Shown here: one piece after another, positions 638 through 41,329 of the stretch | Numbering within the stretch: the stretch's first letter is position 1 | Layout of the letters: every line of letters starts with the position of its first letter | DNA from: a virus | IMG/VR virus record: IMGVR_UViG_3300010412_000002 | Span: 42,630-106,629 of that record | Reading direction: 5' to 3' (one strand) | Length of the DNA stretch: 64,000 nucleotides | Position numbers and translations under genes: made by a program | The notes under the pieces: generated by a model | What the model was told of the DNA's origin: nothing | Databases searched by the model: none | The model's input: only the letters and a program-made list of their open reading frames with translations

Positions 638-998
638 GTTTGGTATTACACGAGATCAAATAGATTTAGTAGTTGCTTATCAGTTTGATTTTGTGTCAGA
701 ATTTTTTGAAAATCCTATAAAAGGCAAACTCTATATCCATGAACTAGGAAGTTTTGTAATCCACGCAAAAACAGTAATTGGATTTTTAAAATCTATAATA
801 AGCCGATTAAAGAAGAAACGTGCAAATAATGAACCATATGACATTAATGAAGTTAATAGGTTTAAGCATTGGTGGAAATATCGGCATGTTGCAATAGAAT
901 ACGTAGCGAATTATTCGCGACAAAACGTGAAAGGTTTTTATAGGCCTTTCGATATTAAGAAAAATATTTATATACCTAAATCTAAAAAAGGACAATAA
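567..998 (+). CDS. HU/IHF-like DNA-binding protein
   Basis: SEFGITRDQIDLVVAYQFDFVSEFF...KLYIHELGSFVI resembles the HU helix-helix plus (V/L)xIxxFGxF motif; basic C-terminus. Confidence 0.55.
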   Translation: MRKLKIKPTSYAVISDLTEAQLSEFGITRDQIDLVVAYQFDFVSEFFENPIKGKLYIHELGSFVIHAKTVIGFLKSIISRLKKKRANNEPYDINEVNRFKHWWKYRHVAIEYVANYSRQNVKGFYRPFDIKKNIYIPKSKKGQ

Positions 999-4619: not shown

Positions 4620-4855
4620 TGAACTTATCTGAACAAAGTTATTATCCTAAGAAAATCAAACTGGCTCAATTATTCTTTGAACGATATTTCATTGAGGGTA
4701 GAAGTGGAAGATTACCACTAAATGAGTTTGAGTTTGATAGTGGCAATATGTGCTACGTACCAGTAAATATGACAAAAGAACGTGAGGTTACGCTTTCAAT
4801 GAAACAATTTGAACAAGCTGCACGTTTAGGAACAGTAGAAGAAATTCATGATTAA
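4619..4855 (+). CDS. Hypothetical protein
   Basis: 78-aa ORF, TAATG-coupled to the upstream gene and overlapping the TerL start. Confidence 0.7.
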   Translation: MNLSEQSYYPKKIKLAQLFFERYFIEGRSGRLPLNEFEFDSGNMCYVPVNMTKEREVTLSMKQFEQAARLGTVEEIHD

Positions 4856-9516: not shown

Positions 9517-9590
9517 TTACATAATTTTTTAAATAAATTGCTGTCCATAGGTTATTATATTATAAATTATAATTAAAATTTTTTATCTTT
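9517..9590 (+). promoter_or_regulatory. AT-rich spacer upstream of scaffold/MCP genes, candidate late promoter and translation initiation region
   Basis: One of the longest spacers in the block, very AT-rich (TATTATATTATAAATTATAATT), no SD; position only. Confidence 0.35.
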
Positions 9591-10724
9591 ATGTCGACTG
9601 AATATACACTTGAAGACGTTCTCGAGTTTTTAGAAGCTGAAGAGCAGTCTGGAGAATATACAGATCAGAATGTAGCAAAGTTCGAGAAAGAGAAAATCTC
9701 TACTCCTCCCAAAGTTGAATCAGAAGAAGAACCCGAAGAACTCGAAGAAACGGAAGAAACTGAAGAAGAACCAGAGGAACAGAAACCTGCTATAATAGAA
9801 GAACAAGAAGAAAGTTCTGAAGAAGACGAAATCACTGAAGGTGATATCCCCAACGCTTATTATAAGTTTCTCGTAGATAATAATGTTATTGTTGTTGACG
9901 AGAATTTCAAGTTTGATGGTAGTGCAGATGCCTTAGAAGAGGCTCTACTCAAGACACGTGAGAATCTAACCACTCAAGCTCTTACTTCTCTTTGGAACAG
10001 ACTATCTCCAGACTTTCAAGCTGCCCTCAAATATAACTTAGATGGAGGCAAAAGTTTCGAAGAATTTGCAAAAGTATATAGTAAAACCGATGATATTTCA
10101 GCCTATGATCTAAATAAACTAGATGATCAAAAAGCTATTGTCGAAAAGTACTATAAGCTAACTAGCAAATATAGCGATGAGCGTATCCAAAAATTCATTA
10201 ACCGCCTAATTGAAACGGAAGAACTATACGATGAAGCGGAAGATGCTCTTGAATACATTAAAGAACACCAAGTTGCTGAACGTAAGAAGCTCCTAGAAGA
10301 GACCGAGCAAAAGCGACTTGAGCAAGAGAAAGCTGTGGAAGAATGGCGTTCTGGAATTATCGGATTAATTAATGATTCTGAAATTCCTAAACCACGTCGT
10401 TCTAAAGTTCAAGCTTTCTTACTGAATCCAATTAAACGTGGAGAATCAGTTGGAACTGATTTTGAAAGAACTTTATCTGCTATCTTTCAAAACCCACAGC
10501 ATTACATTCAGCTAGCAGATATTTTATATAACTACGATGAAAAGAAAGGTCTCGATCTTTCTAGGTTCGTCGAGAAACAAAAAACTCAGGCCAGCTCTAA
10601 GTTTCAAAAAGAACTAGAGGAGGCACTTCGCACAGGCGGAAAAGCAAGAGGAGGTAGTCCCGAAGCACCGTCGAAGTCGCTGAAATTGGACTGGGAAAAT
10701 ATCCTAGAACAACTAGACAATTAA
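9591..10724 (+). CDS. Acidic scaffold-like protein (crAss gene between portal and MCP)
   Basis: Glu-rich disordered N-terminus, helical C-terminus, conserved position. Confidence 0.75.
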   Translation: MSTEYTLEDVLEFLEAEEQSGEYTDQNVAKFEKEKISTPPKVESEEEPEELEETEETEEEPEEQKPAIIEEQEESSEEDEITEGDIPNAYYKFLVDNNVIVVDENFKFDGSADALEEALLKTRENLTTQALTSLWNRLSPDFQAALKYNLDGGKSFEEFAKVYSKTDDISAYDLNKLDDQKAIVEKYYKLTSKYSDERIQKFINRLIETEELYDEAEDALEYIKEHQVAERKKLLEETEQKRLEQEKAVEEWRSGIIGLINDSEIPKPRRSKVQAFLLNPIKRGESVGTDFERTLSAIFQNPQHYIQLADILYNYDEKKGLDLSRFVEKQKTQASSKFQKELEEALRTGGKARGGSPEAPSKSLKLDWENILEQLDN

Positions 10725-19279: not shown

Positions 19280-20014
19280 ATGGCAATTATAATCACACCT
19301 TACGATATTTTAACAGACAATAACGCGGGTGTTGCGCCAACTACTGGAGGTACGTGGTCATATGTCGGCACTGGATCTACTGGTGCCGCACCACTTCCCC
19401 CTAATCCACCTGGTTTATACGATGGTACTCTAGATTTTACTGGGGTAACTAATGCTCCGGCAGGTACGTATATTTATCGATATACTGTTACTTCTGGAGG
19501 ATGTTCCGCTTATGCAGATCTTGACGTTTCTAACTTTGACCACATTATTGTAAAAAATGATGTGTGTGCATCTGCAAGAGAAATCGTATTCCCTTATAAT
19601 GGAGGAACCGCAACTTTGCCCAATCAGTTATTAGGTGAAGCATGCCCTGGCCAAATCCACCCAACTTACTCAGCAACTGCTACTCCTACTGAATGGGGTA
19701 GTGCGACATTTGTAGGAGATTTATGGTATGAATTAAACTATGATGCTACTTATCTGCCTGCTACCGACATTCCTATTGTAATGTCAATAACTGCGGATGG
19801 TATTCCTTACGGAAGTGAAGGAATTGTAGAACCATATTTAGCTGTCTATTCTTCTTGTACACCCGGTCTTGTAGAAGCAGATGTTCCTATTAGTGGATCA
19901 CAAAGCATCGATATAATCATATCGGATGTATTTACAAGTAACTTTACATACTACATTAGAGTAGCATGTGTAGATGGAAATCAAGGAAAATTTAATATTT
20001 CTGTAACAACCTAA
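19280..20014 (+). CDS. Ig-like protein with Bacteroidota surface-protein domains
   Basis: TTGGTWS...GTYIYRYTVTSGGCSA then NDVCASA...DLWY...LAVYSSC...TYYIRV. Confidence 0.65.
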   Translation: MAIIITPYDILTDNNAGVAPTTGGTWSYVGTGSTGAAPLPPNPPGLYDGTLDFTGVTNAPAGTYIYRYTVTSGGCSAYADLDVSNFDHIIVKNDVCASAREIVFPYNGGTATLPNQLLGEACPGQIHPTYSATATPTEWGSATFVGDLWYELNYDATYLPATDIPIVMSITADGIPYGSEGIVEPYLAVYSSCTPGLVEADVPISGSQSIDIIISDVFTSNFTYYIRVACVDGNQGKFNISVTT

Positions 20015-20315: not shown

Positions 20316-22205
20316 ATGGCTCACTTATTTCACACTCCAATTGACCTTAATCAATTGGAAGTTTTAAACCCAACTTTTCAGTTGTTAGGATCGGCCCCGG
20401 GTACACCCGTTGAGGGCCAATTCTATTATAATACAACTGATGATGGAGTGTATTTTCGTAACGGGTCAGCTGCCTGGGAAAAGTTCGTAGGCACAATTAA
20501 TAACGTTGGTACTATTGCTGGAGCGGTAGACGGAGCCAATGATTATTTTGTAATCTACGATGGTTCTGCAAGTGCAAACGTAAAAGTAGCAGTAGACACT
20601 TTACTGTCTGATGTAGGACCATTTGAGAATGTTCTAACCTTCTCTAACGGCCTAACTCGCACAGTTGATGCAATTGCACTAGGTGGAACACTTACTGGTA
20701 ATACAACCATTAACGGAAGTACTAGTTATTACCTGGATGTAACTGGTAGCTCGGGTAGTATTGTTCCATTGCATGCTACTAACACTTCAACTGGTACAGC
20801 ATTACTAGCAACAGCTTCTGAATCATCTGCAATTGAATCAGTGATAGAAACTACCAATACTAATTCAGTTTACCAGAACATTACTCTTACAAGAACTAGT
20901 TCAGGAACTCCTGCAAATGGTATTGGTTCATCAATTCAATTTAATATTGAAACAACTGTTGCTACTCGCGCTGCAGGTTCTTTTCAAATGCTGTGGACAG
21001 ATGCTACAGATGCTACTCGTACTTCGGCAATTGATCTTTATACAACTAATTCTGGCTCAACTTCACGTAAAGTACGTATCGCGGGTTCTGGGCAGCTTAC
21101 GCTGGACGGCTATGGTACGGGTACTTTTACTGGTACCGATGCATATTGGCTTGCTGTAGATTCCTCAGGTAACATTATCGAAGAGGCAGCGCCAGGAGGT
21201 GTATCTGATACTTATTCTACTGTAACAGGTGACACTGGAACTGCTTCTGCTACTGGTGCAGAAACTCTTGATTTTTCCGGTGGAACTGGTATTAGCACTA
21301 CTGTAACTGCAGGTTCTCCGGATGATGTAACTATTGCAATTGACGTAAACTCAACTGTAGATTTTTCGGCTAGTACTCCTGTATGGACTTTTGGTAATGA
21401 AACTACCGCAGAAGGTTTGTTTGTAACTGGTACTCCCGTAGATGGAAACCACGTAGTTAATAAAACCTATGTAGATAATTTGGCTAGCGGACTTGATGGC
21501 AAAGCATCTGTTCTTGTCGCCACCACTGCTGATATTACTATTGCCACCGCACTTAATAGTGGGGATACTATTGATGGTGTACTTCTTGCTGATGGTGATC
21601 GCGTGCTTGTTAAGAACCAAGCTGCCCCAGCAGAAAATGGTATTTACGTAGTAGACGCTTCCCCATTCCGCGCAACTGATGCAGATGCTTGGGACGAGCT
21701 TGTCGCTGCGTATGTATGGGTAGAAGAAGGAACTGTTAATCAAGATACTGGCTGGCTTTGTACTGTAGATGCAGGTGGAACACTAAATACTACTGCAGTT
21801 ACTTGGACATTATTTGCCTCTGCAACTGCACTTATTGCTGGCGAAGGTCTTGCCAAGACTGGAAATGCAATTGATCTAGATCTCAGTGATCTTACTTCTC
21901 TTGGAGCTACCGCAGCTTTGGATGATACTTTGGGTATCTATGACACTGACGCTGTTTCTACAAAGAAAATTACTGTAGCAAATCTCTTAAATGCCCACAA
22001 GTATGCCACAACGACTAATGTTGGTACTGCTGAAGGTGCAGTGGTTGTAAACCACGCATTAAATAGTACTGATGTTATTGTTCAAGTATATGATACTTCT
22101 ACTAGCGATGTTATCACCATTGATATTGATATCACGGATGCTAACAACGTAACCATTCAAGCGTCGGGTTCAACTCGTTCTGTTCGTTGTATTGTAATGC
22201 GGTAA
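20316..22205 (+). CDS. Tail fibre protein
   Basis: PGTPVEGQFYYNT, VNKTYVD...KASVLVATT...IDGV.L..GDRVLVKNQ..ENGIY; C-terminal H-x-L-N..DVIVQVYD module. Confidence 0.85.
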   Translation: MAHLFHTPIDLNQLEVLNPTFQLLGSAPGTPVEGQFYYNTTDDGVYFRNGSAAWEKFVGTINNVGTIAGAVDGANDYFVIYDGSASANVKVAVDTLLSDVGPFENVLTFSNGLTRTVDAIALGGTLTGNTTINGSTSYYLDVTGSSGSIVPLHATNTSTGTALLATASESSAIESVIETTNTNSVYQNITLTRTSSGTPANGIGSSIQFNIETTVATRAAGSFQMLWTDATDATRTSAIDLYTTNSGSTSRKVRIAGSGQLTLDGYGTGTFTGTDAYWLAVDSSGNIIEEAAPGGVSDTYSTVTGDTGTASATGAETLDFSGGTGISTTVTAGSPDDVTIAIDVNSTVDFSASTPVWTFGNETTAEGLFVTGTPVDGNHVVNKTYVDNLASGLDGKASVLVATTADITIATALNSGDTIDGVLLADGDRVLVKNQAAPAENGIYVVDASPFRATDADAWDELVAAYVWVEEGTVNQDTGWLCTVDAGGTLNTTAVTWTLFASATALIAGEGLAKTGNAIDLDLSDLTSLGATAALDDTLGIYDTDAVSTKKITVANLLNAHKYATTTNVGTAEGAVVVNHALNSTDVIVQVYDTSTSDVITIDIDITDANNVTIQASGSTRSVRCIVMR

Positions 22206-22217
22206 TAAATTTTAACT

Positions 22218-24716
22218 ATGTCTAAGAAATACGCAACTACTATAGATGCAGATGGCTTGTTAGTAAACACTCCATCGTCTACTTCTACCAATGAAGTAAT
22301 AGCTAGATTCACCATATCAGATGCTTCTGGGAGTGAAGAACTTCGGATCGACAACCGTTCAGTATCTGATGGATCATTCTGGCCTTCTATTAATGCTTTA
22401 GGAACTACTAGTACTACGGCCATGTATGTAATGGGTACTAGTACAAGCGACAATTCCTCTGATAATGCTGTAATTAGACTAGGTGGAGTTAAAGTACCAA
22501 GCATAGCGGCTCCTTATACTAGCCGCACTTCATTTTCTGCTAGACCAATAGTACAGATTATGAATGGTACGGCTGCTATAACTGCTGTTGTTGGTTACGA
22601 CGGACAATGGACGTTGTCTCCTACTACTGCTTCCAAGGAATACTTGACTACTCGTGGCCATTTATCAGGAACAGAGGAACGATTTACCGTTCTTAACAGT
22701 AGTGAATCTTCTTGGGTTAATAGCGTGGCTGTATCTAACACGCAATCAGATATAGCAGGAATAACGTTGGCAAAAGCTGCTGGTACTACTTTATCAAGTA
22801 CTCCTACTGCAATTACCACGGGAGAATCAGTTGCAAGAATTGATGCCACAGGGTACTTTGGAGCTACTGCTGGGTGGAACACAAATGCTTCAATTGCATT
22901 CAATGTAGGTACAGTTACAACTGATACCCACATGCCAATGTCAATTACTTTCAGTACATCCAATCAGTTGGAAGGTAACCTAACAAGCGCGTTAGTTCTT
23001 CAATCAACTCAACAAGCTACACTTAGTCAATATGGATCTGGGACGTATACTGGAACTCCTGCTTATTACTTAGCGATTGACTCAAGTGGTAATATAATCG
23101 AAGAAACTGGAGGTGCAGGTGATGGCAATGGTATCTACGATGGAAGTGGTACTATTGGAGCAGCTGCTGTTGCAACTATTACAGGAACCTCTACGTTTAC
23201 GATTGATTGGTCAGATACTACAGATGCTTTATTATTTACAGATAGTACCAAAGTATTAAAATTCGATGGGGCTAGACTAGACATAGGTGGAGGAACAACT
23301 GCTCCCTCACTAAGATTCTGGGAACCATCAGGTAGTGGTTCTAACTATGTTGAGTTTAAAGCTATAGCTACTACTTCTGACCAAACTTATACTTTACCTG
23401 TAGCTTACCCATCTACTTCAGGTAGAGCATTAATATCCTCTACAGGAGGGGCTATGTCTTGGGCAACATTAGAAAACTGGGGAGACATCTGGGTAGTTAA
23501 TACTGATGGTAGTGTACAGGTTACTGCTGATCAGAATAACGATGGTATAACATATTATTCCCCAGACAATTCTATTCGTATGGTTGGTGACAATGCATAC
23601 GGTGGATTTAGTGATGATGCTATTACTTGGAGATTAGCAATTGACAAGTTAACTAACTCACTTACTTCGGGCACATTAGCTACTGGAGATCTTTTCGTAG
23701 TATGGGATCTGGATGCGAACGAAAATAAATATATTACCGCTAATGAAATGTCTTCCTACTTTGGAGGTGGAGGTGGTGGTATATATGGAGGTTCTGGAAC
23801 CATTGCTTCTGCGGCAGTAGCTACATTGACATCTAGTTCTACATTTACTATTGATTATAGTGGCGGAACAGATGCTATTACTATTACCGATACTACAAGT
23901 ACGATTCGATTAAACGGTTCTGCTATTTATATTGGAGGAGAAGCTTCTACTACTGAGATGAGATTTCTTGAAGCTTCTGGAAATGGATCAGAGTATACAG
24001 GATTTAAAGCTCCAGATTCCCTCGGAGCAAATCAGATGTACACGCTACCATCCGATACCCCTAATGATGGCGACGTATTAGAGTGGAATACAGGAGGGAC
24101 CCTATCTTGGGAAACAAGAGTAACTGGTCCAGGAGCTGTTACTGATAATACCATTGCTTTATTTAATGGTACTTCTGGAAATGCGATAGACAGTTCTGGT
24201 GTAACTCTTACAACAGCTACTGATCAATTTACTTTGACTAATGGTAACGCATCACTTATTGTTGACGATAATTCTGGTGGGGCAGGAGCACTTAGGCTGT
24301 CTATCAGCGCCACTGGTATCGCTCAAGTTGATGTTGCAGGATCTCCTGATGACATCGTTAGCAGGACAGCCTCTCAAACAATTACTAACAAATTTATAAA
24401 TCCTAGAGTATACAGTACAGCTAGCGCTTCCTCAGTTTCTATAGATGGTGGTTATGATCACTATCAAGTAACTGCTTTAGCAACTGGCTTAACTATTGAT
24501 GATACTATTGCTACTACTCCTGCTGCAGGGCAAAGAGTAGTATTAAGAATACAAGATAGTGGTAGTTCTCAATCATTAACCTGGGATCCAGGATTTGTTC
24601 CTGTCGGAGTAACGTTACCTACAGCAACTACTTCCGGTAAATTGCATTATTTTGGAATGATCTGGAATAATACAGATTCTGTATTTGATGTAGTTGCTTA
24701 TTCTGTAGAAGCTTAA
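22218..24716 (+). CDS. Tail fibre protein with internal 111-aa duplication
   Basis: S/T/G-rich beta fibre; GPGAVTDNTIALFNGTSG; SQTITNK; C-terminal GQRVVLRIQDSG..LTW..GVTLPTATTSGK adaptor-type domain. Confidence 0.85.
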   Translation: MSKKYATTIDADGLLVNTPSSTSTNEVIARFTISDASGSEELRIDNRSVSDGSFWPSINALGTTSTTAMYVMGTSTSDNSSDNAVIRLGGVKVPSIAAPYTSRTSFSARPIVQIMNGTAAITAVVGYDGQWTLSPTTASKEYLTTRGHLSGTEERFTVLNSSESSWVNSVAVSNTQSDIAGITLAKAAGTTLSSTPTAITTGESVARIDATGYFGATAGWNTNASIAFNVGTVTTDTHMPMSITFSTSNQLEGNLTSALVLQSTQQATLSQYGSGTYTGTPAYYLAIDSSGNIIEETGGAGDGNGIYDGSGTIGAAAVATITGTSTFTIDWSDTTDALLFTDSTKVLKFDGARLDIGGGTTAPSLRFWEPSGSGSNYVEFKAIATTSDQTYTLPVAYPSTSGRALISSTGGAMSWATLENWGDIWVVNTDGSVQVTADQNNDGITYYSPDNSIRMVGDNAYGGFSDDAITWRLAIDKLTNSLTSGTLATGDLFVVWDLDANENKYITANEMSSYFGGGGGGIYGGSGTIASAAVATLTSSSTFTIDYSGGTDAITITDTTSTIRLNGSAIYIGGEASTTEMRFLEASGNGSEYTGFKAPDSLGANQMYTLPSDTPNDGDVLEWNTGGTLSWETRVTGPGAVTDNTIALFNGTSGNAIDSSGVTLTTATDQFTLTNGNASLIVDDNSGGAGALRLSISATGIAQVDVAGSPDDIVSRTASQTITNKFINPRVYSTASASSVSIDGGYDHYQVTALATGLTIDDTIATTPAAGQRVVLRIQDSGSSQSLTWDPGFVPVGVTLPTATTSGKLHYFGMIWNNTDSVFDVVAYSVEA
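23130..24110 (+). repeat. Two 111-codon diverged repeats (23130-23462 and 23778-24110)
   Basis: GIYDGSGTIGAAAVATITGTSTFTIDWS...LRFWEPSGSGSNY..FKA...YTLP...GAMSW vs GIYGGSGTIASAAVATLTSSSTFTIDYS...MRFLEASGNGSEY..FKA...YTLP...GTLSW; same length. Confidence 0.9.
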
Positions 24717-24735
24717 ATATATTAATATATAAACC

Positions 24736-26013
24736 ATGTCTCTATTCTATACTCTTATTGTACCTTTTCTGGTTTCTTTTTTCTCAATTACAGAAGGCAC
24801 ATGGATTACGGATTGTGAAGTCCAAGATGCGTGTGCGGATGCTTGTAACTATACTGATAGTCCAGTATACGTTAATCAAGATTGTTTAGAGAAAGTTGCT
24901 AACCTATCTGATTGGTCAGATCTACAAGGAGATAACTGCGATACAGTATTCCTAAAACCTGGGGATTATACTGGACTTGGCAATCTTGAGTATTCTGATC
25001 TTAATTCAAACACGGTAGTACTGTATGGACTAACCTATCCTATGGGTTCCGGTACTACTTCTGCTGTGCGTATTCTTTCCTTCAATGATCCGGATTTCAC
25101 AGACTCAAAACTTGAGTTTGTTAATATCATCTTCGAGGAAGGAGTAAGCATCGCAGCTCAGCCTACATCTAGCTTTGGTTGGTTTAATGATTCCGACATT
25201 ACGTTTAACTGCTGCTTATTTGAAGATTATGGATTTTCCTCTACGGATGATCCGCAAAAAGCACAAGCTCCTGACATCGGGTTCTTTAGCTGCTATTTCG
25301 ATGCTTGTGATGTAGGAATTGCTTTTGGAAATGGCTATGTTAAAAACTGTATCTTCGATGCCTGTGGAGTTGGCATTGATCTCTATGCTGCACATCCAGC
25401 TAGTTACGATGCGGTTGGACATACTGTTGAACTTGACTCCCTAGTATTTATTGGCGATGAATCTGAAGCTGTTAATTACGCAGTTATAGATAACAGTGAA
25501 TATTATGGATACTACGATGAAAATGAAAATTGGGTAGATGCAGATAACATTAGTTATACTGAACTTACTAATTCTTCATTTATTGATATTGAAAAAGGAG
25601 TTACTCTAGATGCAGGAGTTGCACATGAATTTAACTACTATTTCTATCATCTATGGTTCTTACCTCTTAACGTTACTCCAAGTACCTATGGAGCTATTGA
25701 TCATCCTGAACTTACTTGGTCTGGATTTGGAACTAAGTCCAGTACTATTTCAGGTTGCCGATTTGTAGACTTTAGTAATGTTGCTCCTAATAATCTTTCT
25801 TGCGATTATCCAGATAGTCAGATTAACATGAGTAGCTCACTATTTGAATACTGCGGATCTGGAGTTTATAACTGGGTAAGTTGTACTGGAAATTACCATA
25901 GAAATTCTAGTTCTAATTGTAACTCAAGTGCTTATCCTTCTTCTTACACGTTTTGGTATCCTACCAATACTAATGTGAAGAACTCGGCAAAAACTTCTTA
26001 TACAATTAACTAA
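24736..26013 (+). CDS. Parallel beta-helix (pectin lyase-like) protein with hydrophobic N-terminus
   Basis: DTVFLKPGDY cap motif; coil repeats FNCCLFED, FFSCYFDACDVGI, VKNCIFDACGVGI, ISGCRFVD; 16 Cys; N-terminus MSLFYTLIVPFLVSFFS. Confidence 0.65.
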   Translation: MSLFYTLIVPFLVSFFSITEGTWITDCEVQDACADACNYTDSPVYVNQDCLEKVANLSDWSDLQGDNCDTVFLKPGDYTGLGNLEYSDLNSNTVVLYGLTYPMGSGTTSAVRILSFNDPDFTDSKLEFVNIIFEEGVSIAAQPTSSFGWFNDSDITFNCCLFEDYGFSSTDDPQKAQAPDIGFFSCYFDACDVGIAFGNGYVKNCIFDACGVGIDLYAAHPASYDAVGHTVELDSLVFIGDESEAVNYAVIDNSEYYGYYDENENWVDADNISYTELTNSSFIDIEKGVTLDAGVAHEFNYYFYHLWFLPLNVTPSTYGAIDHPELTWSGFGTKSSTISGCRFVDFSNVAPNNLSCDYPDSQINMSSSLFEYCGSGVYNWVSCTGNYHRNSSSNCNSSAYPSSYTFWYPTNTNVKNSAKTSYTIN

Positions 26014-26021
26014 TACAAGAT

Positions 26022-26060
26022 AGGGTGTGTTGGCCAAGGCAACTTGGCCTTACATTCTTA
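26022..26060 (+). terminator. Stem-loop with GCAA tetraloop after the beta-helix gene
   Basis: GGCCAAG-GCAA-CTTGGCC core, extended by AGGGTGTG/TACATTCT; weak U tract. Confidence 0.6.
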
Positions 26061-26073
26061 ACTTCTAAATAAT

Positions 26074-26775
26074 ATGGCAACAGAAACATTTACATCATCA
26101 GGTAGTTGGTCTAAACCTGCGGGAGTTACATCTGTATTCGTAGAATGCTGGGGAGCTGCTGGAGGAGGAGGTGCATCAAATAATACTTCAAATGGTGGTG
26201 GAGGAGGCGGAGGTGGTGCCTATGCCTCTGATACAGTTGCGTATAGTTCTGGAGCATCATCGGTAACTTATGTAGTTGGTACTGGTGGTGCAGGCGGTAC
26301 TGGCACAAGTGCTGGCATTAGTGGAGGACACACTTATTGGGGAGCATCTTTTGATGTATTTGCAAGAGGTGGATATGGTGGTGGAGGTACTGCAGGTGGA
26401 AACGGTAGTTCTGGAGCAGGAGGAGAAGATTCCCTTAGTGCAGGTTCTACAAAATACGCCGGAGGAGCTGGGTCTGCCGGAAACGGTGGAACATACGGAG
26501 GCGGCGGTGGCGGCGGTGGAGCTGGATCTACTGGAGCTGGTGGTACGGCTACTAGTACTGCAACTGGCGGAACTGGAACTTCTGAAAATGGGGGTGATGG
26601 CGGTAATGGAGGAATTGGAGCAGGAACCACTGGAAATAATTACGGAGGTGGTGGAGGTGGAGGCCGTAGAAGCGGTAGTCCATCATCAGGCCCTGGTGGC
26701 GATGGAGCTGGAGGTTATATTAGGATTACATATACACTTCCTACATCGACAGGAAATTTCTTTTTAGTACTTTAA
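26074..26775 (+). CDS. Glycine-rich (polyglycine-type) fibre-tip/adhesin protein
   Basis: TFTSSGSW..PAGVTSV.VECWGAAGGGG...VVGTGGAGG...GGDGAGGYIRITY; C-terminal GNFFLVL. Confidence 0.8.
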   Translation: MATETFTSSGSWSKPAGVTSVFVECWGAAGGGGASNNTSNGGGGGGGGAYASDTVAYSSGASSVTYVVGTGGAGGTGTSAGISGGHTYWGASFDVFARGGYGGGGTAGGNGSSGAGGEDSLSAGSTKYAGGAGSAGNGGTYGGGGGGGGAGSTGAGGTATSTATGGTGTSENGGDGGNGGIGAGTTGNNYGGGGGGGRRSGSPSSGPGGDGAGGYIRITYTLPTSTGNFFLVL

Positions 26776-26804
26776 ATAGCAATATAATATAATATTTATA
26801 AATT

Positions 26805-27068
26805 ATGAAACAGACTAATACTATTAATTTTTCGCAAAACGCGATTGAAACTATTGAACCTACTCTTGAAACTATTAATAAGTTAACTCAAGAGATTCTA
26901 AATCTAAATTCTCAATTAGAAGTTTTTATTAAAGGGTTTGCTTCCGCTCAGAATATTCCTGACGGAGCTGTTTTAAAGCTGTCACAAGATGGCAAACAAT
27001 TGCTTGTCTTCGAGAAAGAAATCGAAGAGCAAGAAGAACCCACAAAATCTAAAACTAAAAAGAAATGA
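26805..27068 (+). CDS. Small coiled-coil protein, possible fibre chaperone
   Basis: Heptad INKLTQEILNLNSQLE, charged tail, position after the fibre genes. Confidence 0.55.
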   Translation: MKQTNTINFSQNAIETIEPTLETINKLTQEILNLNSQLEVFIKGFASAQNIPDGAVLKLSQDGKQLLVFEKEIEEQEEPTKSKTKKK

Positions 27069-27736
27069 GTTTAAGAAATAATAGATATTTTACTCTCTGG
27101 CAAAACTCAGATGATAGAGAACTAATATTGCTAGATGACGTAAAGAACTTGCGCCATCTTGTAACTGCGTTAGATCCAGCTTTAGCAGATGCTGCGTTGG
27201 ACTACTTTGCAATTCATGACAGATCTTCTGGCCATGCAAAGCAATTTACTATTAATGATCTTGTTACCCTCTTAAGTACACTTGGTGTTGGTGGGGGAGT
27301 AATTCAGTATAATACTGGAGATGTAACAATCACAGCTTCTGACACAGGTGTAACAGCTAGTAGAGATGCAGTCAATGGCATCGTTACTATTACTGTTCCA
27401 GAAGATGTACACCTTTTCGGAGCCAACGTATATGGTGTTCAAACAGACACAGATTCATCTAACAACCTTAAAATCAAAGTTGTATATACTAATGAAACTG
27501 TTGTTAACCAAAATACTAGAACTGCAGATATTCCACAAGTAGAATTTGTCGATCTTACTATTCCTTACGCATCTAATGGCGGAGTAGTATCTGAAACATA
27601 TCCAGGTGTTTATGCTAAAACATCTGCAAAGGATGTTTCTCTAGTAACCGCAGAACTTGATGGTTCTGATGCAGTGCTCCAAGTTAAAGTAGAGAGCATT
27701 GTAGAAACTAACTTTTTAATAAAATTAACATTTTAA
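27065..27736 (+). CDS. Fibre-associated structural protein
   Basis: DYFAIHDRSSGHAKQFTINDL module shared with the fibre genes; ATGA-coupled. Confidence 0.6.
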   Translation: MSLRNNRYFTLWQNSDDRELILLDDVKNLRHLVTALDPALADAALDYFAIHDRSSGHAKQFTINDLVTLLSTLGVGGGVIQYNTGDVTITASDTGVTASRDAVNGIVTITVPEDVHLFGANVYGVQTDTDSSNNLKIKVVYTNETVVNQNTRTADIPQVEFVDLTIPYASNGGVVSETYPGVYAKTSAKDVSLVTAELDGSDAVLQVKVESIVETNFLIKLTF

Positions 27737-27738
27737 GA

Positions 27739-29802
27739 ATGAAACGTATTGTAATATTTATATTAACCATACTGCCATTCTTAGGGTATTCTCAAGTAGA
27801 AGAAGACTTTGGGGGAAGATTTATCTTCTACCATGACACACTTATCCCTACTACGGAAAGCTTTTATGTGGAAGGTATTTATGCCCATCCACGTAACGCG
27901 TACACCGCAGACTCTGCATCAGTAGGAGATATCATTGTGGATTGCGATTGCAATGCTTTCGTAATTGATACTATTCACTCTGTATTGTCTAACATTCTTT
28001 CTCTTACGATTACACCCCAAGATACGTCAGTGAATGATATTCGTTCCTGCACAGGCGGTATTCTTAGAGCTAAATCTCCACCAAATGGAAATTATGCTTT
28101 TCCTGCTGGAGTTCCTGATAACATAGCAGATTGTATTCTAAACTTTAACTTATCAAATACCTACGATATCTTATTTAGTACAGATACACTTTATATTGCA
28201 GCTGATACACTCTATCTTATAGTAAAAGGAAATACTCAAAAGATACCTCTATCTAGTATTAATGATGGTAATGGTATTTACAGCGGTGATGGGGTCTTAG
28301 TGACAGAGACTGATGTTACTCAGAATGCCTTTAAGATCAACTTTAGCTCTGATGTAAATGGCAGCTACGGGGGCAGATTTAGTAACTTAGGAACTGGTGG
28401 TACTGGTGTTCAAGGTATTGGGAAAGGATATGGAGTAAGAGCTACTGGATCTAGTATAGCTGATGCTGTTGGATTATGGGCAGAGAATACCTCAGCTTCT
28501 GCTTATACCGTACTCATAGCAAATTATTCAACTGCCAATGGTATACTACCAATGATGTCTTTTCAAAGACCTTCTGCCACAACTGCTGCGATAGGAGATG
28601 GAACCGGAATTGAATTTCAGGCAAAGAATGGTTTTGGTGGGAATCCAATTTATTTAAAGATTCAAGGATACTTGTCAGATCTATCTAGTGGGGCTGAAGA
28701 CGGTGTGTTTACTGTTAAACTTATGGAAGAAGGAGCAACAGCTGCTGATAGGCTCACTCTGGCTTCTACAGGAGCATTAACACTTCAAGGATATGCTAAT
28801 GCTGCGTTAGTAAATGCTGACTCTTCTCTGTATGCTATGACTCTAGACGAAACTGGAGACGTGCATGCAGTAGCTGTAAGTGGACTTGCAGATGGGTTCA
28901 TCGGAACTACTAATGCTACTCTTACGAGTAATCGTACTATTACTAACGCAGGTTTTAGTTTCATTATGTCTAATAATACTTCTACTACTACTTTCAGAGC
29001 AAACAATACTGCAGCTAGTGGTACCGCTATTTATGGTAACTCTACTTTAAGTTATGGAGTTCGTGGTTATTCTGGATCTAATTACGGTGGATATTTTGAA
29101 AGTAATGGTGCTAGCAGTGGGGCGTTATATGTGAATAATACTTCAACTGGTACTGGGGCTGTTATTGGTGCTAATTCTGGAATCGCTCTAATTGCAGGAT
29201 CTACAGGTCAAATAGCTATACGTGCTAGTGAAGACGGATCTACTACTAATACTGTTGTAGATGTGTTTGAAATGGCTACAACCACTAGTGGTACAGCTGC
29301 TGATGGCTATGGTATAGGAATGAGATTTACTGCTGAACAAGCTTCTGGATCTAGTACTACGATGGGATCAGTAGATATGTATTGGGAAGATGCTACTAAC
29401 GTAAACCCGGAACTTAGAATACAAATGCGTGAAGAAGGTTCTGCTGAAACTACTAAGTTAACTTTGGAGTCTACTGGTATTATGACTCTTCAATCTGGTG
29501 TACGTGATAATGTACTATCGGAAGTATCTTCTACTACCACTGCTACTTTATACAAAACTCTACCAGTAAACACTACTGGTGGTGGATTTGATATTGATGT
29601 TCCAACTGCACCTGTTGCAGGTGATTGGTTTGCTGTAGTTGACTCTCGTGGACAAGCTGGTAGTAATAACATTACCGTAAACTTTACTGGAGCCACCGTA
29701 AATTTCCATGGAGCTAGCAACGATTATGTCCTTGTAGCTACCAATGAGTATGCTCGTTTCACCTATGTAAATGCTACAGTAGGTTGGGTTAAATCTAACT
29801 AA
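27739..29802 (+). CDS. Fibre-like protein with N-terminal Sec signal peptide
   Basis: MKRIVIFILTILPFLGYS|Q; fibre modules DGNGIYSGDG and GVRGYSGSNYGGYF; C-terminal VNTTGG..PTAPVAGD...NNITV...YVNATVGW phage fibre domain. Confidence 0.75.
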   Translation: MKRIVIFILTILPFLGYSQVEEDFGGRFIFYHDTLIPTTESFYVEGIYAHPRNAYTADSASVGDIIVDCDCNAFVIDTIHSVLSNILSLTITPQDTSVNDIRSCTGGILRAKSPPNGNYAFPAGVPDNIADCILNFNLSNTYDILFSTDTLYIAADTLYLIVKGNTQKIPLSSINDGNGIYSGDGVLVTETDVTQNAFKINFSSDVNGSYGGRFSNLGTGGTGVQGIGKGYGVRATGSSIADAVGLWAENTSASAYTVLIANYSTANGILPMMSFQRPSATTAAIGDGTGIEFQAKNGFGGNPIYLKIQGYLSDLSSGAEDGVFTVKLMEEGATAADRLTLASTGALTLQGYANAALVNADSSLYAMTLDETGDVHAVAVSGLADGFIGTTNATLTSNRTITNAGFSFIMSNNTSTTTFRANNTAASGTAIYGNSTLSYGVRGYSGSNYGGYFESNGASSGALYVNNTSTGTGAVIGANSGIALIAGSTGQIAIRASEDGSTTNTVVDVFEMATTTSGTAADGYGIGMRFTAEQASGSSTTMGSVDMYWEDATNVNPELRIQMREEGSAETTKLTLESTGIMTLQSGVRDNVLSEVSSTTTATLYKTLPVNTTGGGFDIDVPTAPVAGDWFAVVDSRGQAGSNNITVNFTGATVNFHGASNDYVLVATNEYARFTYVNATVGWVKSN

Positions 29803-30309: not shown

Positions 30310-31240
30310 TCTTCTTCTAAATGCCGATGCGGGTGGAACGTGGACGTATAACGGATACTCTGCAACATTTGACGGGGACGATGACAATCTAGCTCAGTTT
30401 GTCGGAAGCCCCGCTTCACCTCCCGAGGAAACTGCTTCCTTAATTGGTGATGACCCCACCCTTGATCCAACTGGTCATACGGTGGGGTTTTATTCTTTTA
30501 CCTACTCGCTCGTCTCTGGAGGTTGTTCAGCCGATAATAATATAGTGTTGCCTATCATGGCAACGTATACAGCAGGAGATGATGTCTCCAAAACTATTTG
30601 TCAAGATGATAGATCAATATTTAATCTATTTGATCTCATTGATGACTTTGGAGCAAATGGAGTTGATACAGGAGGAAGTTGGGAACAACTAAATGGGACT
30701 CCTAATCCACATCCTGGTTTCTCTAATAATGTAGATCCTACATTAGCAACATTTGACGTATCTGAAATTGATTGGCCTAATGATACGTTTCCCATTCATT
30801 TTTATTATACTACTCAAGAGCCAGGAGTAGCAGGATTTACGCGAACAAGATGTCCGCAATGCAGTTCTGATCATTCGTCGGTCTACATAACAATGACTGG
30901 TACATCATGTTGCACAGCATCAACCTATTGCTATCAAGGAACAGTTCTAGATGGGACTACTATATATAAAATTACGTACCTAGACGGATCTTTTATAGAT
31001 AATACTAGTGATGCAATGAATTTCCCGTATACCTTACCTGGGGACAATGCAACATTTGAAGCCGATTTAAATAGTTATTTAACAAATAATGGAGGTGGTA
31101 CTTGTACTATTATTGCGAGTGATCCAGCCCCAACCTATAACACTGTTTATGTAGATATTCCATGTAAGAGATTAGATGCTCTGTGTACAACGTCTGACTG
31201 TTCGTTATACACTCGATTTACAGGAGGAATATGTATTTAA
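30278..31240 (+). CDS. Cys-rich Ig-like protein with two GG(T/S)W repeats, related to 19280..20014
   Basis: DAGGTW...GFYSFTYSLVSGGCSA; TAGDDVSKTIC...NLFDLI...DTGGSW; 13 Cys. Confidence 0.65.
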   Translation: MACPVINLRSDLLLNADAGGTWTYNGYSATFDGDDDNLAQFVGSPASPPEETASLIGDDPTLDPTGHTVGFYSFTYSLVSGGCSADNNIVLPIMATYTAGDDVSKTICQDDRSIFNLFDLIDDFGANGVDTGGSWEQLNGTPNPHPGFSNNVDPTLATFDVSEIDWPNDTFPIHFYYTTQEPGVAGFTRTRCPQCSSDHSSVYITMTGTSCCTASTYCYQGTVLDGTTIYKITYLDGSFIDNTSDAMNFPYTLPGDNATFEADLNSYLTNNGGGTCTIIASDPAPTYNTVYVDIPCKRLDALCTTSDCSLYTRFTGGICI

Positions 31241-31662
31241 CTTTTCTTAATATTACAATGACTGATATTGGAGTCTGGGCGTCGCTATTACCGATCGTAG
31301 GATCTGTCATCTTTACCTATGTTCGGTTATCCAGTAGAATGGCACGTATGGAAACTATTCAAGAAGAACAAGCAAAAGTAATTTCCAGAATAGAATTAGA
31401 TTCAGATGCTCACTACGATAAGGTATCAAAACAAATTGATGATCTAAAGACTAGTGTTGTTTCTGTAGAAAAAGCTATCTTAGAAACATCACTAAGACGT
31501 AGTGTAGAATATGATAATCTAACTAAACAATTGGATAATATCGCTTCTAGTGTGCACGCACAGGAAGCACGTATTACTAACCTGGAACTCTTTAATCAAC
31601 GCATGTATGAGATCCCTATGGAGAATCCTAGACGCCCTAGGAGAAAAGGCAACACGAACTGA
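31231..31662 (+). CDS. Single-TM coiled-coil protein of the lysis cassette (holin/antiholin-like)
   Basis: TM IGVWASLLPIVGSVIFTYV followed by a long coiled coil; basic tail. Confidence 0.55.
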   Translation: MYLTFLNITMTDIGVWASLLPIVGSVIFTYVRLSSRMARMETIQEEQAKVISRIELDSDAHYDKVSKQIDDLKTSVVSVEKAILETSLRRSVEYDNLTKQLDNIASSVHAQEARITNLELFNQRMYEIPMENPRRPRRKGNTN

Positions 31663-31930
31663 TATATGGACCCTCTGTGCTATAACGGCGTTTATATGGG
31701 CGCTTATTAAATCAGACACAGATATGGTTATATGGTTATTAGGATTTATGTTTGCCGACCTAGGAATTGAAAAATATACAGATGTACAGAAAGTAAAACA
31801 CTATGCTGAAACTATTAGAGAAGATCAAAGCGACTCACATCATTATCCTAATACTCGTGGGAGTAATAGCAATGTTGTGGATTCGAACCGACTCCTTGAA
31901 AAAGGACATGACGGATCTTCTGATGACTAA
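31607..31930 (+). CDS. Putative 2-TM holin
   Basis: From ATG 31607: IWTLCAITAFIWALI and MVIWLLGFMFADLGI, hydrophilic tail; overlaps both neighbours. Confidence 0.55.
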   Translation: MRSLWRILDALGEKATRTDIWTLCAITAFIWALIKSDTDMVIWLLGFMFADLGIEKYTDVQKVKHYAETIREDQSDSHHYPNTRGSNSNVVDSNRLLEKGHDGSSDD

Positions 31931-32552
31931 TGACACTCTCGTAACTTATATAAACGAGTTAGGGCAAAGAGTATATGATATACCCGTGCAAGTAATTGAT
32001 CCCACAGTAATAGGAAAGTTACGCGCTGTTGACTCAACTTATAAGGAACTCGATAGGAGAATACGAGCTTTTGATAAAAAACATAAAGATCTTATGGCTT
32101 CAATGGCTCTTGTATTAGAATCAGAAGGAACAGTAAGCTCCACTTACGTTACTAACAACTACTATAGTGAGGACTCCACAGTATATTCTAAAACATTCCA
32201 TTATGATGATGGGCTGCTGGATGCGTATACTACGATTCCAAACACTTTAGATAGTATAGAAACTTCTTATAAAATTAACTTAGGGAAAATGTATATAGAT
32301 ATCTTTAATAAGCGACGAGGCATTTTAAGCCGTTCTGAGCCGCTTTATGATGTCTATGCTACATTCGATAACCCCAAAGTTAATCTTTTGTCACAGCGCG
32401 TCTCTGTGGGTCTTAGACCCGTTCCTGTGGTCAGTATTACTGCTGGAGGAGGATTTGCAATAGTACAACACAACAAACAATTACATTGGGGGCCAAGCCT
32501 ATACTTAGGAGCAGGAATTCCATTATACACTTTTTATAAACATAAAAGATGA
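31803..32552 (+). CDS. Spanin-like protein: N-terminal TM, coiled coil, C-terminal amphipathic beta-hairpin
   Basis: HIIILILVGVIAMLWI; VVSITAGGGFAIV...WGPSLYLGAGIPLYTF; directly upstream of the endolysin. Confidence 0.5.
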   Translation: MLKLLEKIKATHIIILILVGVIAMLWIRTDSLKKDMTDLLMTNDTLVTYINELGQRVYDIPVQVIDPTVIGKLRAVDSTYKELDRRIRAFDKKHKDLMASMALVLESEGTVSSTYVTNNYYSEDSTVYSKTFHYDDGLLDAYTTIPNTLDSIETSYKINLGKMYIDIFNKRRGILSRSEPLYDVYATFDNPKVNLLSQRVSVGLRPVPVVSITAGGGFAIVQHNKQLHWGPSLYLGAGIPLYTFYKHKR

Positions 32553-33130
32553 TTATTAAAAACTATACCGAGCTAAGGGATGTCTTACATGGATTAAACT
32601 ACGTTTTCTATGAGGAACCCTTCAAAATGAATATAGTAGGATTACGAAGAATCATTAATACTAACAACTTTGATGATGTCTTATACGTAGCTTTTAAAGA
32701 TGATTATCAAAATGTCTATTTAGAAGATTACTACATTACTACAGATCCCGGAAGGAGTTCTCTTATGAATCCTAAAAATAGACATGGTACTGCAATTTTG
32801 AAAGAAGGACAATACGTAGATACATACGCAATTGATTATCATCGTGGTAACTACCTAGCGTTATGCCAACGTCTTGGACCAGTAACTGTGTATAGAGACA
32901 TAGATCGTGATGCAGAATTAGATCTAAATAACTCTACTACAGAAACTGGATTCTTTGGTATTAATATACATAAGGCTGGGGTACTTTCTAAACTAGTAGA
33001 CGGTTGGAGTGCAGGTTGCCAAGTTTTTGCAGATGAGAACGATTTTAAAGCGTTTATGAAACTATGTAAAACACATTCAAAAAGACATGGAAACAAGTTT
33101 ACATATACTCTGCTTAGCTCCGTGTTATAA
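32549..33130 (+). CDS. Endolysin, L,D-transpeptidase (YkuD)-like Cys peptidase
   Basis: NIVGLR, TTDPG, GTAILKEGQY, GINIHKAG...GWSAGCQV (His...SxGC catalytic motif). Confidence 0.75.
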   Translation: MIIKNYTELRDVLHGLNYVFYEEPFKMNIVGLRRIINTNNFDDVLYVAFKDDYQNVYLEDYYITTDPGRSSLMNPKNRHGTAILKEGQYVDTYAIDYHRGNYLALCQRLGPVTVYRDIDRDAELDLNNSTTETGFFGINIHKAGVLSKLVDGWSAGCQVFADENDFKAFMKLCKTHSKRHGNKFTYTLLSSVL

Positions 33131-39134: not shown

Positions 39135-41329
39135 ATAAAAATAATCAAATAGCCCAGGGGATGGCCTCCGTAGGAGCTTTAGCAAAGCCACTAGATCTAG
39201 TAGTTCCTGGGTTAGGAACGGGTATTGGGGCTGCCACCCAACTAGGTGCGCTATTGCTTCCAGATACAACGGTACAATATCCAATCAATCCCTATAATGT
39301 AAACGCATTTGGAAGTGTTGGTTATTATAATGCAGGCGGAACTTTACCAGGAGGTATAGGAGATCGGCAAATATCACGCGACGCGTTCAAAGTTCAAGGC
39401 AATGGTGGTATAGATAATAACTATCGGCAGGTAGAAGGACAACCTGCAATGCTTACACAAAATGAAATTGTAGGGAAGTTAACAAACGGAGAAAACTATG
39501 TTTACTCTGATTACTTACGTAATCCTCTTTCCGGTAATACTTTTGCAAAAGACGCAGAGAAACTCAAGAAAGCGCAACATCAAGCAGATGTAAGAGCAGA
39601 ACTTGGTGATCCTATAGCAAGAAAAACTGTTGCTGCAATTAAACAAGAAAGTGACAAGCTTGCTACAATAAATGATATGGCAATCAAAATGGCACAACAG
39701 AATATGCCCGGCAAGACTGCAGAAGAATACTGCAGAGGTGGCAAAATTAAACCAAAGAAGATGGTTCTTGGAGGTGCTACTGAATTACCACAACCTGGAC
39801 AAATTACACCAGAAATGTCTGGTTGGTGGGGTAACCCATCAGTATCTCAGGTTCCTGTAGTAATGCCTACTCCAGATCCAATTCCTATAGTTCCTCCTTT
39901 TAGTACTGTAGCTCCTTACCCAAAACAAGGAGACTTCTGGTATGGCATTGATCCTGCTGCTAGAGCAGGTATTGAAAACGCTGGAAGACAAGTAATGCAA
40001 GGAGCTAATAACGTACGAGACTTTAATCATAATCTTTCCCAAGGAATTGTACAAGGATTTACAGATTATTCTACAGCAATTGGTAGAGGACTATACGGTC
40101 CAGGATTCCAATTTGGAGATATCGGACCTATCAATTCCATGGCTAGAAACTATGTAGAACGTACTCCACAGAATCCTGGTATGCGTTCCAGAGGAATAGG
40201 GGCATCAGCATATGATCCTACCCAAGATCCAAGAATAATGGGATGGCAACAATATAGCCCAACCAATTCTCCCACAACTGTTGCTACTCCTACTGTTACT
40301 CCAGAACAACTCGCCGCAGATAAAGCTGCTGCAACTGCTAGTACGTCTAAAGGAGGTAGTAAAGGGAGTAGTAAAGGATCTGTAGGACTTGATTATATCC
40401 CAGGTACTGAAGAGCTTACTGCTAGGCCCAATAAAGAAACTCTATCTATAGAGGATGTAAAAGCAGGTAAGACTTTAAATTATACTGATCCTAATTGGAA
40501 AGGAGTGAAGACTTCTGACTTCCAATCTTGGCTAGAGAAAAATCACCCAGGGGAATTGCCAAAATTTGGTGTAGATGGTAAATGGGGTAGTGAAACAGAA
40601 AGTGCATGGAATAAATATGGTAAAGAATACTTAACGTTTGCAGGATTTTTTGGGGCTCCTCCAGTAGAAATGCTTAAGACAAATGCTCCGCAACAAATTG
40701 ACCGTACTAAGGAACAAGGAGCAATAGCGCAGGAAGCTGCCAATAAAAAATCAGAGCCTGTAGCAAATGACAATCAAAGTTTCTTTTCAAGTATTCAACC
40801 TTATATTGGTGATATCATGCAAGGATTAGCCTTTGCAGGTCAATTTGCAAATATGGGTCCAGCTACATGGGAACAAATCCCAATGATGGATAATAGACAA
40901 ATTGATCCCACGTATATGCAAGAGCGTATTCGAGCTGCAAGGACTGCTGCAATGCAGCAAGCTGGAACTTCCTATACTTCAAATCAAGCTGCTCAAATGG
41001 CTATGATTTCAGATGCTGCTCAACAAGAAACACAAATGCTGCAACAGGTGGCTCAACAAAATAAACAATTGTCAGCCTCTACACAGCAATATAATAATCA
41101 AGCTAGAGTACAGCAACAAATTGCTAGAATGCAAGCTCAGGGAGCAAGAGATGCTGCAATGCAGGGTATCTGGGGATCATTTGCAAATGCTGGTCAAGCA
41201 CTTAATGAACAGTATTCAAACAAAGTTGGACAAGCCGCACTTGCTGCAGCTTATCCTCTTATCTTTGAAGGATTATCCGCAGATATGAAAGAGTTTCTAC
41301 AAAAGAAAGCAAACAAAACTAACATCTAA
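39131..41329 (+). CDS. Virion cargo/ejection protein with peptidoglycan-binding-like motif
   Basis: Gly/Ala hydrophobic N-terminus, YVYSDYL...GNTFA, xxGG repeats, GVDGKWGSETESAW, Q/A-rich coiled coil. Confidence 0.7.
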   Translation: MNKNNQIAQGMASVGALAKPLDLVVPGLGTGIGAATQLGALLLPDTTVQYPINPYNVNAFGSVGYYNAGGTLPGGIGDRQISRDAFKVQGNGGIDNNYRQVEGQPAMLTQNEIVGKLTNGENYVYSDYLRNPLSGNTFAKDAEKLKKAQHQADVRAELGDPIARKTVAAIKQESDKLATINDMAIKMAQQNMPGKTAEEYCRGGKIKPKKMVLGGATELPQPGQITPEMSGWWGNPSVSQVPVVMPTPDPIPIVPPFSTVAPYPKQGDFWYGIDPAARAGIENAGRQVMQGANNVRDFNHNLSQGIVQGFTDYSTAIGRGLYGPGFQFGDIGPINSMARNYVERTPQNPGMRSRGIGASAYDPTQDPRIMGWQQYSPTNSPTTVATPTVTPEQLAADKAAATASTSKGGSKGSSKGSVGLDYIPGTEELTARPNKETLSIEDVKAGKTLNYTDPNWKGVKTSDFQSWLEKNHPGELPKFGVDGKWGSETESAWNKYGKEYLTFAGFFGAPPVEMLKTNAPQQIDRTKEQGAIAQEAANKKSEPVANDNQSFFSSIQPYIGDIMQGLAFAGQFANMGPATWEQIPMMDNRQIDPTYMQERIRAARTAAMQQAGTSYTSNQAAQMAMISDAAQQETQMLQQVAQQNKQLSASTQQYNNQARVQQQIARMQAQGARDAAMQGIWGSFANAGQALNEQYSNKVGQAALAAAYPLIFEGLSADMKEFLQKKANKTNI

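Follow-up and report, generated by a model that had tools for sequence, protein, structure and literature searches.

A conserved tail-fibre-like protein of a crAss-like phage with a predicted Bacteroidota-type export leader

A leader-bearing fibre-like protein in the late structural block

The DNA analyzed here, referred to throughout as the window, is a stretch of 64,000 nucleotides from IMG/VR virus record IMGVR_UViG_3300010412_000002 (positions 42,630 to 106,629 of that record). The source genome is complete, with a length of 106,629 bp and direct terminal repeats, and belongs to a crAss-like phage encoding a large terminase, a portal and a major head protein. The closest cultured relatives of the head protein infect Flavobacterium, Bacteroides and Cellulophaga (∼30% identity), and from the hosts of these capsid relatives the host phylum is presumed to be Bacteroidota. 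The subject of this report is P0001, the 687-amino-acid (aa) product of an open reading frame (ORF) located in the late co-directional structural block, between the portal, capsid and tail genes on one side and a holin-like gene and endolysin gene on the other. Based on its sequence, predicted structure and gene context, P0001 is best explained as a conserved tail-fibre protein of a clade of ∼105-kb crAss-like phages that is made late along with the virion proteins. Its parts are as follows.

27739..29802, + strand: whole ORF of P0001, leader-bearing tail-fibre-like protein, 687 aa
27739..27792, + strand: predicted leader of the Sec/signal peptidase I (SPase I) type, residues 1-18; MKR, I4-L15 core and G-Y-S, with predicted cleavage before Q19
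27793..28176, + strand: N-domain, residues 19-146; beta-barrel plus long helix, four Cys, invariant D58-S59
28177..28248, + strand: DTLY repeats, residues 147-170, modelled as a pair of beta-hairpins; the DTLY motif is kept across the family
28351..28788, + strand: first copy of the fibre module, residues ∼205-350; aligns internally with copy 2 and, as a monomer, is modelled poorly
28993..29493, + strand: fibre module copy 2, about residues 419-585; the sole part common to another protein of this phage
29506..29799, + strand: C-terminal XD1-type beta-sandwich (C-domain), residues 590-687; motif GDWFAVVDSRG..NNITV, predicted local distance difference test score (pLDDT) ∼96

The initial annotation of this gene, made from the letters alone, had described a leader composed of MKR, a hydrophobic core and GYS followed by Q, a Cys-containing N-domain, DTLY repeats and a C-domain typical of phage fibres, and these features are all present. 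The leader consists of MKR, a 12-residue aliphatic core (IVIFILTILPFL, with Pro13 at -6 relative to the predicted cleavage site) and G16-Y17-S18, followed by Q19; it is modelled as a helix spanning residues 2-15 with a low-confidence linker at residues 17-20. The N-domain, with cysteines at C69, C71, C104 and C132, has a pLDDT of ∼90 in the full AlphaFold model. Fold matches for its barrel were only middling, to gpJ-like tail-tip barrels (Z 7-9), a likeness that may be just a common arrangement, and Foldseek returned no convincing match for the N-domain in the PDB or BFVD. The DTLY repeat (TDTLYIAADTLYLIV) occupies residues 147-161 and is modelled as beta-hairpins. Copies 1 and 2 of the fibre module align locally with a score of 123, compared with 46.9 ± 8.6 in shuffles (z 8.8), and the module recurs across many relatives, with 2-6 matched stretches in each. 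The C-domain matches the XD1 domain of CBA120 TSP4 (7rej_A residues 80-176) with Z 16.9 and a root-mean-square deviation of 1.2 Å over 96 residues at 21% identity; a baseplate protein of Klebsiella phage KP1 was matched with Z 12.2, and Foldseek gave E 1e-8 for the C-domain. At the sequence level, whole P0001 had no significant match in Pfam, PHROGs or NCBIfam, in which an enzymatic domain was not detected either, and no match in the PDB.

Three other classes of protein were considered for P0001 and rejected. It is not a cargo of the type IX secretion system (T9SS), as its C-terminus is the XD1-type domain and carries neither a type A nor a type B sorting domain; searches for the T9SS C-terminal domain (TIGR04183, TIGR04131, PF18962) gave no NCBIfam match at E≤0.1 and no such Pfam match at E≤1. 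A lipoprotein of the Llp/Cor type was rejected given that residues 1-68 lack Cys, Gln follows the site and there is no lipobox. Finally, a signal-arrest-release (SAR) anchor was rejected given a core rich in Ile, Leu, Phe and Val (mean hydropathy 2.3) that is followed by the G-Y-S site and Q.

The leader is conserved and the start site is coupled to the upstream gene

Whether the leader is real was judged from its conservation across homologues, as the initial annotation had proposed. An exhaustive HMMER search identified 532 relatives at E≤0.001, and the C-domain was found to end hundreds of fibre-like proteins. The N-domain is common to P0004, P0006, P0007/P0157, P0009, P0010, P0011, P0012, P0015, P0016 and P0005/P0156; it is also encoded by an ORF of contig L003 and, more distantly, is found in P0150. 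Every full-length N-domain homologue has K/R, a hydrophobic core with L..LPF, a small-x-small site and Gln. In the N-domain alignment, seven columns are invariant and Gln19 is among them. The apparent lack of a leader in P0005 stems from a gene call that starts too late, and P0156 from the same cluster has the leader. Although the leader diverges more than the mature domain (39% vs 47% identity), its physicochemistry is retained: Pro at -6, the small residues at -3 and -1 and Gln at +1 are kept while the core drifts. A crude rule combining a leader with Gln fires on just 4 of the 136 ORFs in this genome that reach 100 aa, so its presence in 12 of 12 members of the N-domain family is not due to chance.

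P0001 itself shows the standard sequence features of a signal peptide. Its n-region contains K2 and R3, and K/R precedes the core in every full-length homologue; the h-region (I4-L15) is uncharged, falls within the range of 7-15 residues and is shorter than a membrane span; and the residues at -3 and -1 (G16 and S18) are small and uncharged. Of the traits that define Bacteroidota SPase I substrates and tail-appendage proteins, P0001 has all those that can be read from sequence, predicted structure and gene context. Translation from a start downstream of the leader had been raised as an objection to this reading. The ATG of P0001 lies 2 nt past the upstream TAA, and in L003 and L004 the start overlaps the upstream stop as TAATG. 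The nearest in-frame downstream start is a GTG at codon 44, and its position is unconserved in the homologues. As the start adjoins or overlaps the upstream stop in all three genomes and no internal start is conserved, downstream initiation is implausible. We consider it likely that the leader of P0001 is functional and cleaved.

The cysteines of the N-domain are lost in pairs. C69 and C104 are jointly absent from P0009, P0010 and P0150, while C71 and C132 are jointly absent from P0150 only. This pattern is consistent with two disulfides in the N-domain, which would fit folding in the periplasm. The sequence also contains five sequons of the Bacteroidota general O-glycosylation system, of the form D-(S/T)-(A/I/L/V/M/T), all within residues 19-165, with D58-S59 invariant and the DT(L/A/M) hairpin motif conserved.

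P0001 had additionally been described as sharing modules with the other fibres of this phage and, as one of two possible functions, as an exported fibre paralogue that could occupy the receptor. One module is indeed shared: residues 452-585 resemble residues 139-264 of the 629-aa protein encoded at 20316-22205 (E 1.7e-6). The N- and C-domains, on the other hand, occur in no other protein of the 106.6-kb genome, and P0012 likewise has no paralogue in its 103.5-kb genome (G001). A decoy requires a leaderless virion fibre for the same receptor, and because none was found in either genome, the decoy proposal is disfavored.

Leaders and XD1-type domains in the wider family

Of the 532 relatives, the 150 best were surveyed; 139 of these 150 start with Met, and most of the 150 match the C-domain only. 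Leaders following the Q-rule of Bacteroidota SPase I substrates (K/R, a hydrophobic core, then A, S or G ahead of Q) were present in 51 of the 139 Met-starting proteins, on many unrelated N-domains. In these 51, which were picked by a rule demanding small residues at -3 and -1, position -1 is only A, S or G and position -3 is A, L, V, G, S, T or I. A further 11 relatives have leader-like ends lacking the Gln, such that Gln occupies +1 in 51 of 62 (82%). For comparison, the mean Q-value of Bacteroidetes is 71%, with related phyla much lower (Bochtler et al. 2018, PMC5837995). Leader-bearing and leaderless relatives could not be told apart by their amino-acid composition.

Members of the N-domain family range from 425 to 1471 aa in length and differ in their C-terminal parts, the N-domain being conserved and the distal part variable. 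Fibres that dock by their N-terminus usually show this combination of a conserved N-domain and exchangeable C-terminal parts, and on this sequence pattern P0001 would be one. At the other extreme are small proteins of 126-203 aa (P0018 with 126 aa, P0086, P0099, P0110, P0014, P0059, P0060, P0105 and P0042) that have a Q-rule leader and little beyond the XD1-type domain; these are possibly soluble exported binders or fibre-tip partners. In the 40-kb viral contig L005, a protein of 1,902 aa (2598-8306, +) has both a leader and this C-domain; its gene is followed by a lipoprotein-like ORF (MKGFISIFILTLIMVSC; 8846-9601, +), and a PHROGs search across this neighborhood gave almost no matches. Contig L002 (68% G+C) encodes the XD1-type domain as a leaderless 118-aa protein.

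Relatives were not recovered from other collections. A word-based search of 5.8 billion proteins with P0001 found itself alone, tblastn with P0001 and P0028 gave no match in 50,697 phage records, and motif scans for the N- and C-domains detected no relatives in 185,579 species genomes or in JGI metagenome contigs. The same type of scan of IMG/VR found only L002/L006 (one contig), L003, L004 and L005. That neither domain occurs in the 185,579 species genomes suggests that these are proteins of non-integrated phages.

Several other ORFs with leader-like starts were noted along the way. Outside the window, three in the genome of this phage (G000), at 233-820 (-), 30417-31007 (-) and 40438-40815 (+), pass the crude leader and Gln rule, for example with MRNNIFGFLATLLLLLLTMLLAHNRGIA followed by Q, and VASC, which resembles a lipobox, occurs in a small ORF at G000 32375-32635 (-). 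In the 103.5-kb relative, the ORF directly after the leader-bearing fibre gene (L004 14365-15195, +) has a Q-rule leader when read from an internal Met (MMKRAAIILSLILGHLWPSQAQ followed by V).

Gene neighborhood

Genomic context for the N-domain family was read for three genomes, those of this phage, L003 and L004. The genes flanking P0001 in the window are listed below.

27065..27736, + strand: upstream gene, 223 aa, without a leader; located directly ahead of the leader-bearing fibre gene in each of the three genomes whose context was read
31231-33130, + strand: probable lysis cassette, ∼1.4 kb downstream of the P0001 gene
31231-31662, + strand: holin-like membrane protein of the lysis cassette
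31803-32552, + strand: protein with an N-terminal signal anchor, in the lysis cassette
32549-33130, + strand: endolysin-like protein (phrog_33083, E 2e-10)

The order of genes is a fibre-like block, the holin-like gene, the endolysin-like gene, crAss-type tail proteins and then a 6,679-aa ORF, and no site resembling a terminator was found 3′ of the P0001 gene. Homologues of the 223-aa upstream gene are found at 9279-10001 of L003 (37% identity) and 9444-10001 of L004 (35%), so that this gene and the P0001-type fibre gene form a syntenic pair in three related phages. The 223-aa protein had no match in Pfam, PHROG or NCBIfam, and its Atlas leads were weak (Mtd_N and Gp53-like_C, scores < 0.9). 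In L003 the pair is located directly 3′ of conserved tail genes and is immediately preceded by a homologue of the window gene at 19280-20014. Five fibre-block genes of the window (20316-27068, +; 629, 832, 425, 233 and 87 aa) are without counterpart at that position in L003, a pattern suggestive of an accessory fibre cassette that was inserted in this phage.

Other features of the region deserve mention. The 425-aa product of the fibre block (24736-26013, +) is Cys-rich and starts with an uncharged, hydrophobic N-terminus (MSLFYTLIVPFLVSFFSITEG) with no K/R ahead of it; it had no match in Pfam, PHROG or NCBIfam and could be another membrane-targeted fibre-block protein or merely have a hydrophobic start. 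The signal-anchor protein of the lysis cassette (31803-32552) has five O-glycosylation sequons vs 1.2 expected (p 0.004). The packaging module includes a full-length GroEL-like gene (2386-4017, +; phrog_5725, E 7e-142), and the structural arm ends in the single 6,679-aa ORF (43234-63273, +).

Comparison with known proteins

The closest parallel in cultured phages comes from Cellulophaga. In phage phi10:1 (NC_021802), gp091-gp095 all start with Q-rule leaders (K/R, a hydrophobic core, then A, G or S ahead of Q), and the records of gp091-094 describe them as structural or tail proteins 'based on experimental MS/MS proteomics' (MS/MS, tandem mass spectrometry). Leaders of the same build are present on gp085-087 of phage phi18:3 (NC_021794), which carry the same MS/MS-based annotation. 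As with P0001, the leaders are on tail proteins; those of the Cellulophaga phages are tail-fibre or pectate-lyase-like, follow one another and come from the distal end of the tail module. The host again belongs to the Bacteroidota, and in both records endolysin genes are located downstream. Unlike P0001, these proteins come from different phage types, with no detectable sequence similarity to it, and their structural annotation derives from MS/MS, whereas the virion role of P0001 is predicted. No paper discussing the leaders of the phi10:1 and phi18:3 proteins was found.

TSP4, whose XD1 domain the C-domain matches, is not known to have a signal peptide. The XD1 domain of CBA120 TSP4 (PDB 7REJ residues 80-178), a domain of T4 gp9 and the KP1 protein have the same 9-stranded mixed beta-sandwich as the C-domain of P0001. 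Its placement differs: XD1 lies near the N-terminal, baseplate-proximal end in TSP4 and gp10, whereas in P0001 it forms the extreme C-terminus and in relatives it can stand alone behind a leader. XD1 is a component of trimeric tail appendages, is closest to the T4 gp9 domain and has a fold in common with the glycan-binding modules of CpaA and StcE (Chao et al., PMC8825819). With regard to the leader, its anatomy and the Gln at +1 are as in the Q-rule substrates of Bacteroidota (PMC5837995; PMC10653852). Q-rule leader proteins of unknown function have also been described in Porphyromonas phages, though not on fibres (PMC10367356). The Q-rule substrates are cellular envelope proteins, whereas P0001 belongs to the late structural module of a tailed phage of lytic type.

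Two other groups of exported phage proteins invite comparison. T5 Llp and the Cor proteins of phi80 and N15 are phage-encoded, exported and adjoin receptor-binding genes, and they would suit the exclusion role suggested in the initial annotation. They have no relation to fibres, however, being small lipoproteins that carry a lipobox Cys and are processed by SPase II, unlike P0001 with its 687 aa, Gln at +1, fibre domains and no lipobox. The pIII protein of Inoviridae is a receptor-binding virion protein with a Sec leader and periplasmic disulfides that joins the particle outside the cytoplasm. It is a functional analogy only, since inoviruses extrude through the envelope whereas the phage studied here is a tailed dsDNA phage with a terminase, portal, capsid and lysis cassette. 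Literature searches for Sec-exported tail fibres gave no description of any, in agreement with the initial statement that no mechanism of this kind was known.

A proposed export route and its alternatives

Leader anatomy and conservation, start site, synteny, folds and the absence of paralogues were computed directly, and from these we infer all five steps of the following route. The leader would direct P0001 through the host Sec translocon. Signal peptidase I would then cut after Ser18, and Gln19 would probably be cyclised to pyroglutamate, a modification shared by the majority of Bacteroidota SPase I substrates; two disulfides would form in the N-domain in the periplasm. The matured fibre would meet the cytoplasm-built particle only once the neighboring lysis cassette breaks the inner membrane, and would dock by the N-domain, which is conserved in the clade; the leaderless protein encoded upstream is a possible docking partner. 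The exchangeable XD1-type sandwich would then point outward as a probable glycan-, receptor- or partner-binding tip. For the full chain of export, periplasmic maturation and joining of the particle at lysis, we consider the balance to be even. Of the two functions offered initially, the fibre matured in the periplasm is the one favored, though only indirectly, by the synteny and by the MS/MS-based annotation of the Cellulophaga proteins, while the decoy paralogue is not; the reported occurrence of leader-bearing tail-end proteins in virion preparations of two cultured phages shifts the odds to a role in the virion.

Several observations weigh against this route. In this phage, no clear leader is present on the upstream partner or on any other protein of the fibre block, which would mean that the tail apparatus is completed from two compartments. 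Fibres of the cultured phages crAss001 (gp21-26) and FpV4 are also leaderless, so the leader is not general to crAss-like phages and export is no general need. The MS/MS detection of the Cellulophaga proteins could reflect co-purified envelope material, and the export, cleavage and virion presence of P0001 are themselves predictions. Its O-glycosylation sequons are close to expectation (5 vs 3.6 ± 1.8, z 0.8). Finally, to our knowledge, every documented tailed-phage fibre is assembled in the cytoplasm, and we know of no documented precedent in tailed phages for the attachment of fibres after lysis.

The leader evidence would apply equally to an exported protein that never enters the virion and instead acts late in the periplasm or envelope, where it might mask or modify the receptor or its precursor or loosen the envelope, for example in superinfection exclusion, in protecting progeny from debris or in loosening the envelope ahead of release. 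Receptor-masking exported phage proteins do exist in T5 Llp and Cor, and the many tiny relatives made up of a leader and XD1 alone (P0018, P0086, P0099 and P0110 among them) look more like soluble binders than fibres. Moreover, CpaA and StcE, secreted proteases that were also among the structural matches, have glycan-binding modules of the XD1 fold (PMC8825819). Such a role is nevertheless unlikely. With no leaderless fibre having the same N- or C-domain in this genome or G001, there is nothing to mimic. The gene also keeps its position across three phages, within the late block and tightly linked to a structural gene. Known exclusion genes, by contrast, are typically early or separately expressed. 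Lacking a lipobox and a T9SS C-terminal domain, the protein would remain in the periplasm, away from surface receptors; the profile searches revealed no enzymatic domain, and the leader-bearing analogues of the Cellulophaga phages are annotated as virion proteins.

Other readings retain P0001 as a fibre or late protein and dispense with cleavage or export. All documented tailed-phage fibres assemble in the cytoplasm, and P0001 might likewise fold and join the particle there, its N-terminus being a buried structural or oligomerisation element or being cut by a phage protease. The leaderless partner and fibres of this phage and of crAss001 and FpV4 agree with this, and leader predictions in some phage capsid proteins have been explained as prohead-protease targets (PMC10367356). 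We regard this as improbable, and more so than a non-virion role, given that an N-terminus of K/R and 12 hydrophobic residues would be expected to engage the targeting machinery regardless of its purpose, the conservation pattern is that of a signal peptide, the same type of leader is found on dozens of unrelated N-domains, unlike a fold-specific structural helix, and the paired loss of Cys points to disulfides. Least probable of all is that the leader is an uncleaved or slowly released membrane tether. A hydrophobic N-terminal helix with a positive N-flank is present, the lysis cassette is ∼1.4 kb downstream, and phage proteins that are tethered and then released are known in the SAR endolysins. 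SAR domains are Gly/Ala/Ser-rich and weakly hydrophobic, however, whereas the core of P0001 is rich in Ile, Leu and Phe. With 12 residues this strongly aliphatic core is short for a stable membrane anchor and leads into a textbook small-x-small site, and the invariant Gln at +1 has no known role unless the site is cut (PMC5837995).

Implications

Textbook accounts place the assembly of tailed phages wholly in the cytoplasm, and a conserved fibre that matures in the periplasm would depart from that. The broader idea, that tailed phages of Bacteroidota use a two-compartment assembly line common to many uncultured phages and to the cultured Cellulophaga phages, is put forward tentatively, as falling a little short of an even chance. 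It is amenable to culture work with Cellulophaga phages phi10:1 and phi18:3. If a conserved fibre does mature in the periplasm, infectious particles would be complete only at lysis, and such fibres would have to be routed to the periplasm when expressed for structural studies or engineering. The host range of Bacteroidota phages would then depend on the export, oxidative folding and perhaps glycosylation machinery of the host.

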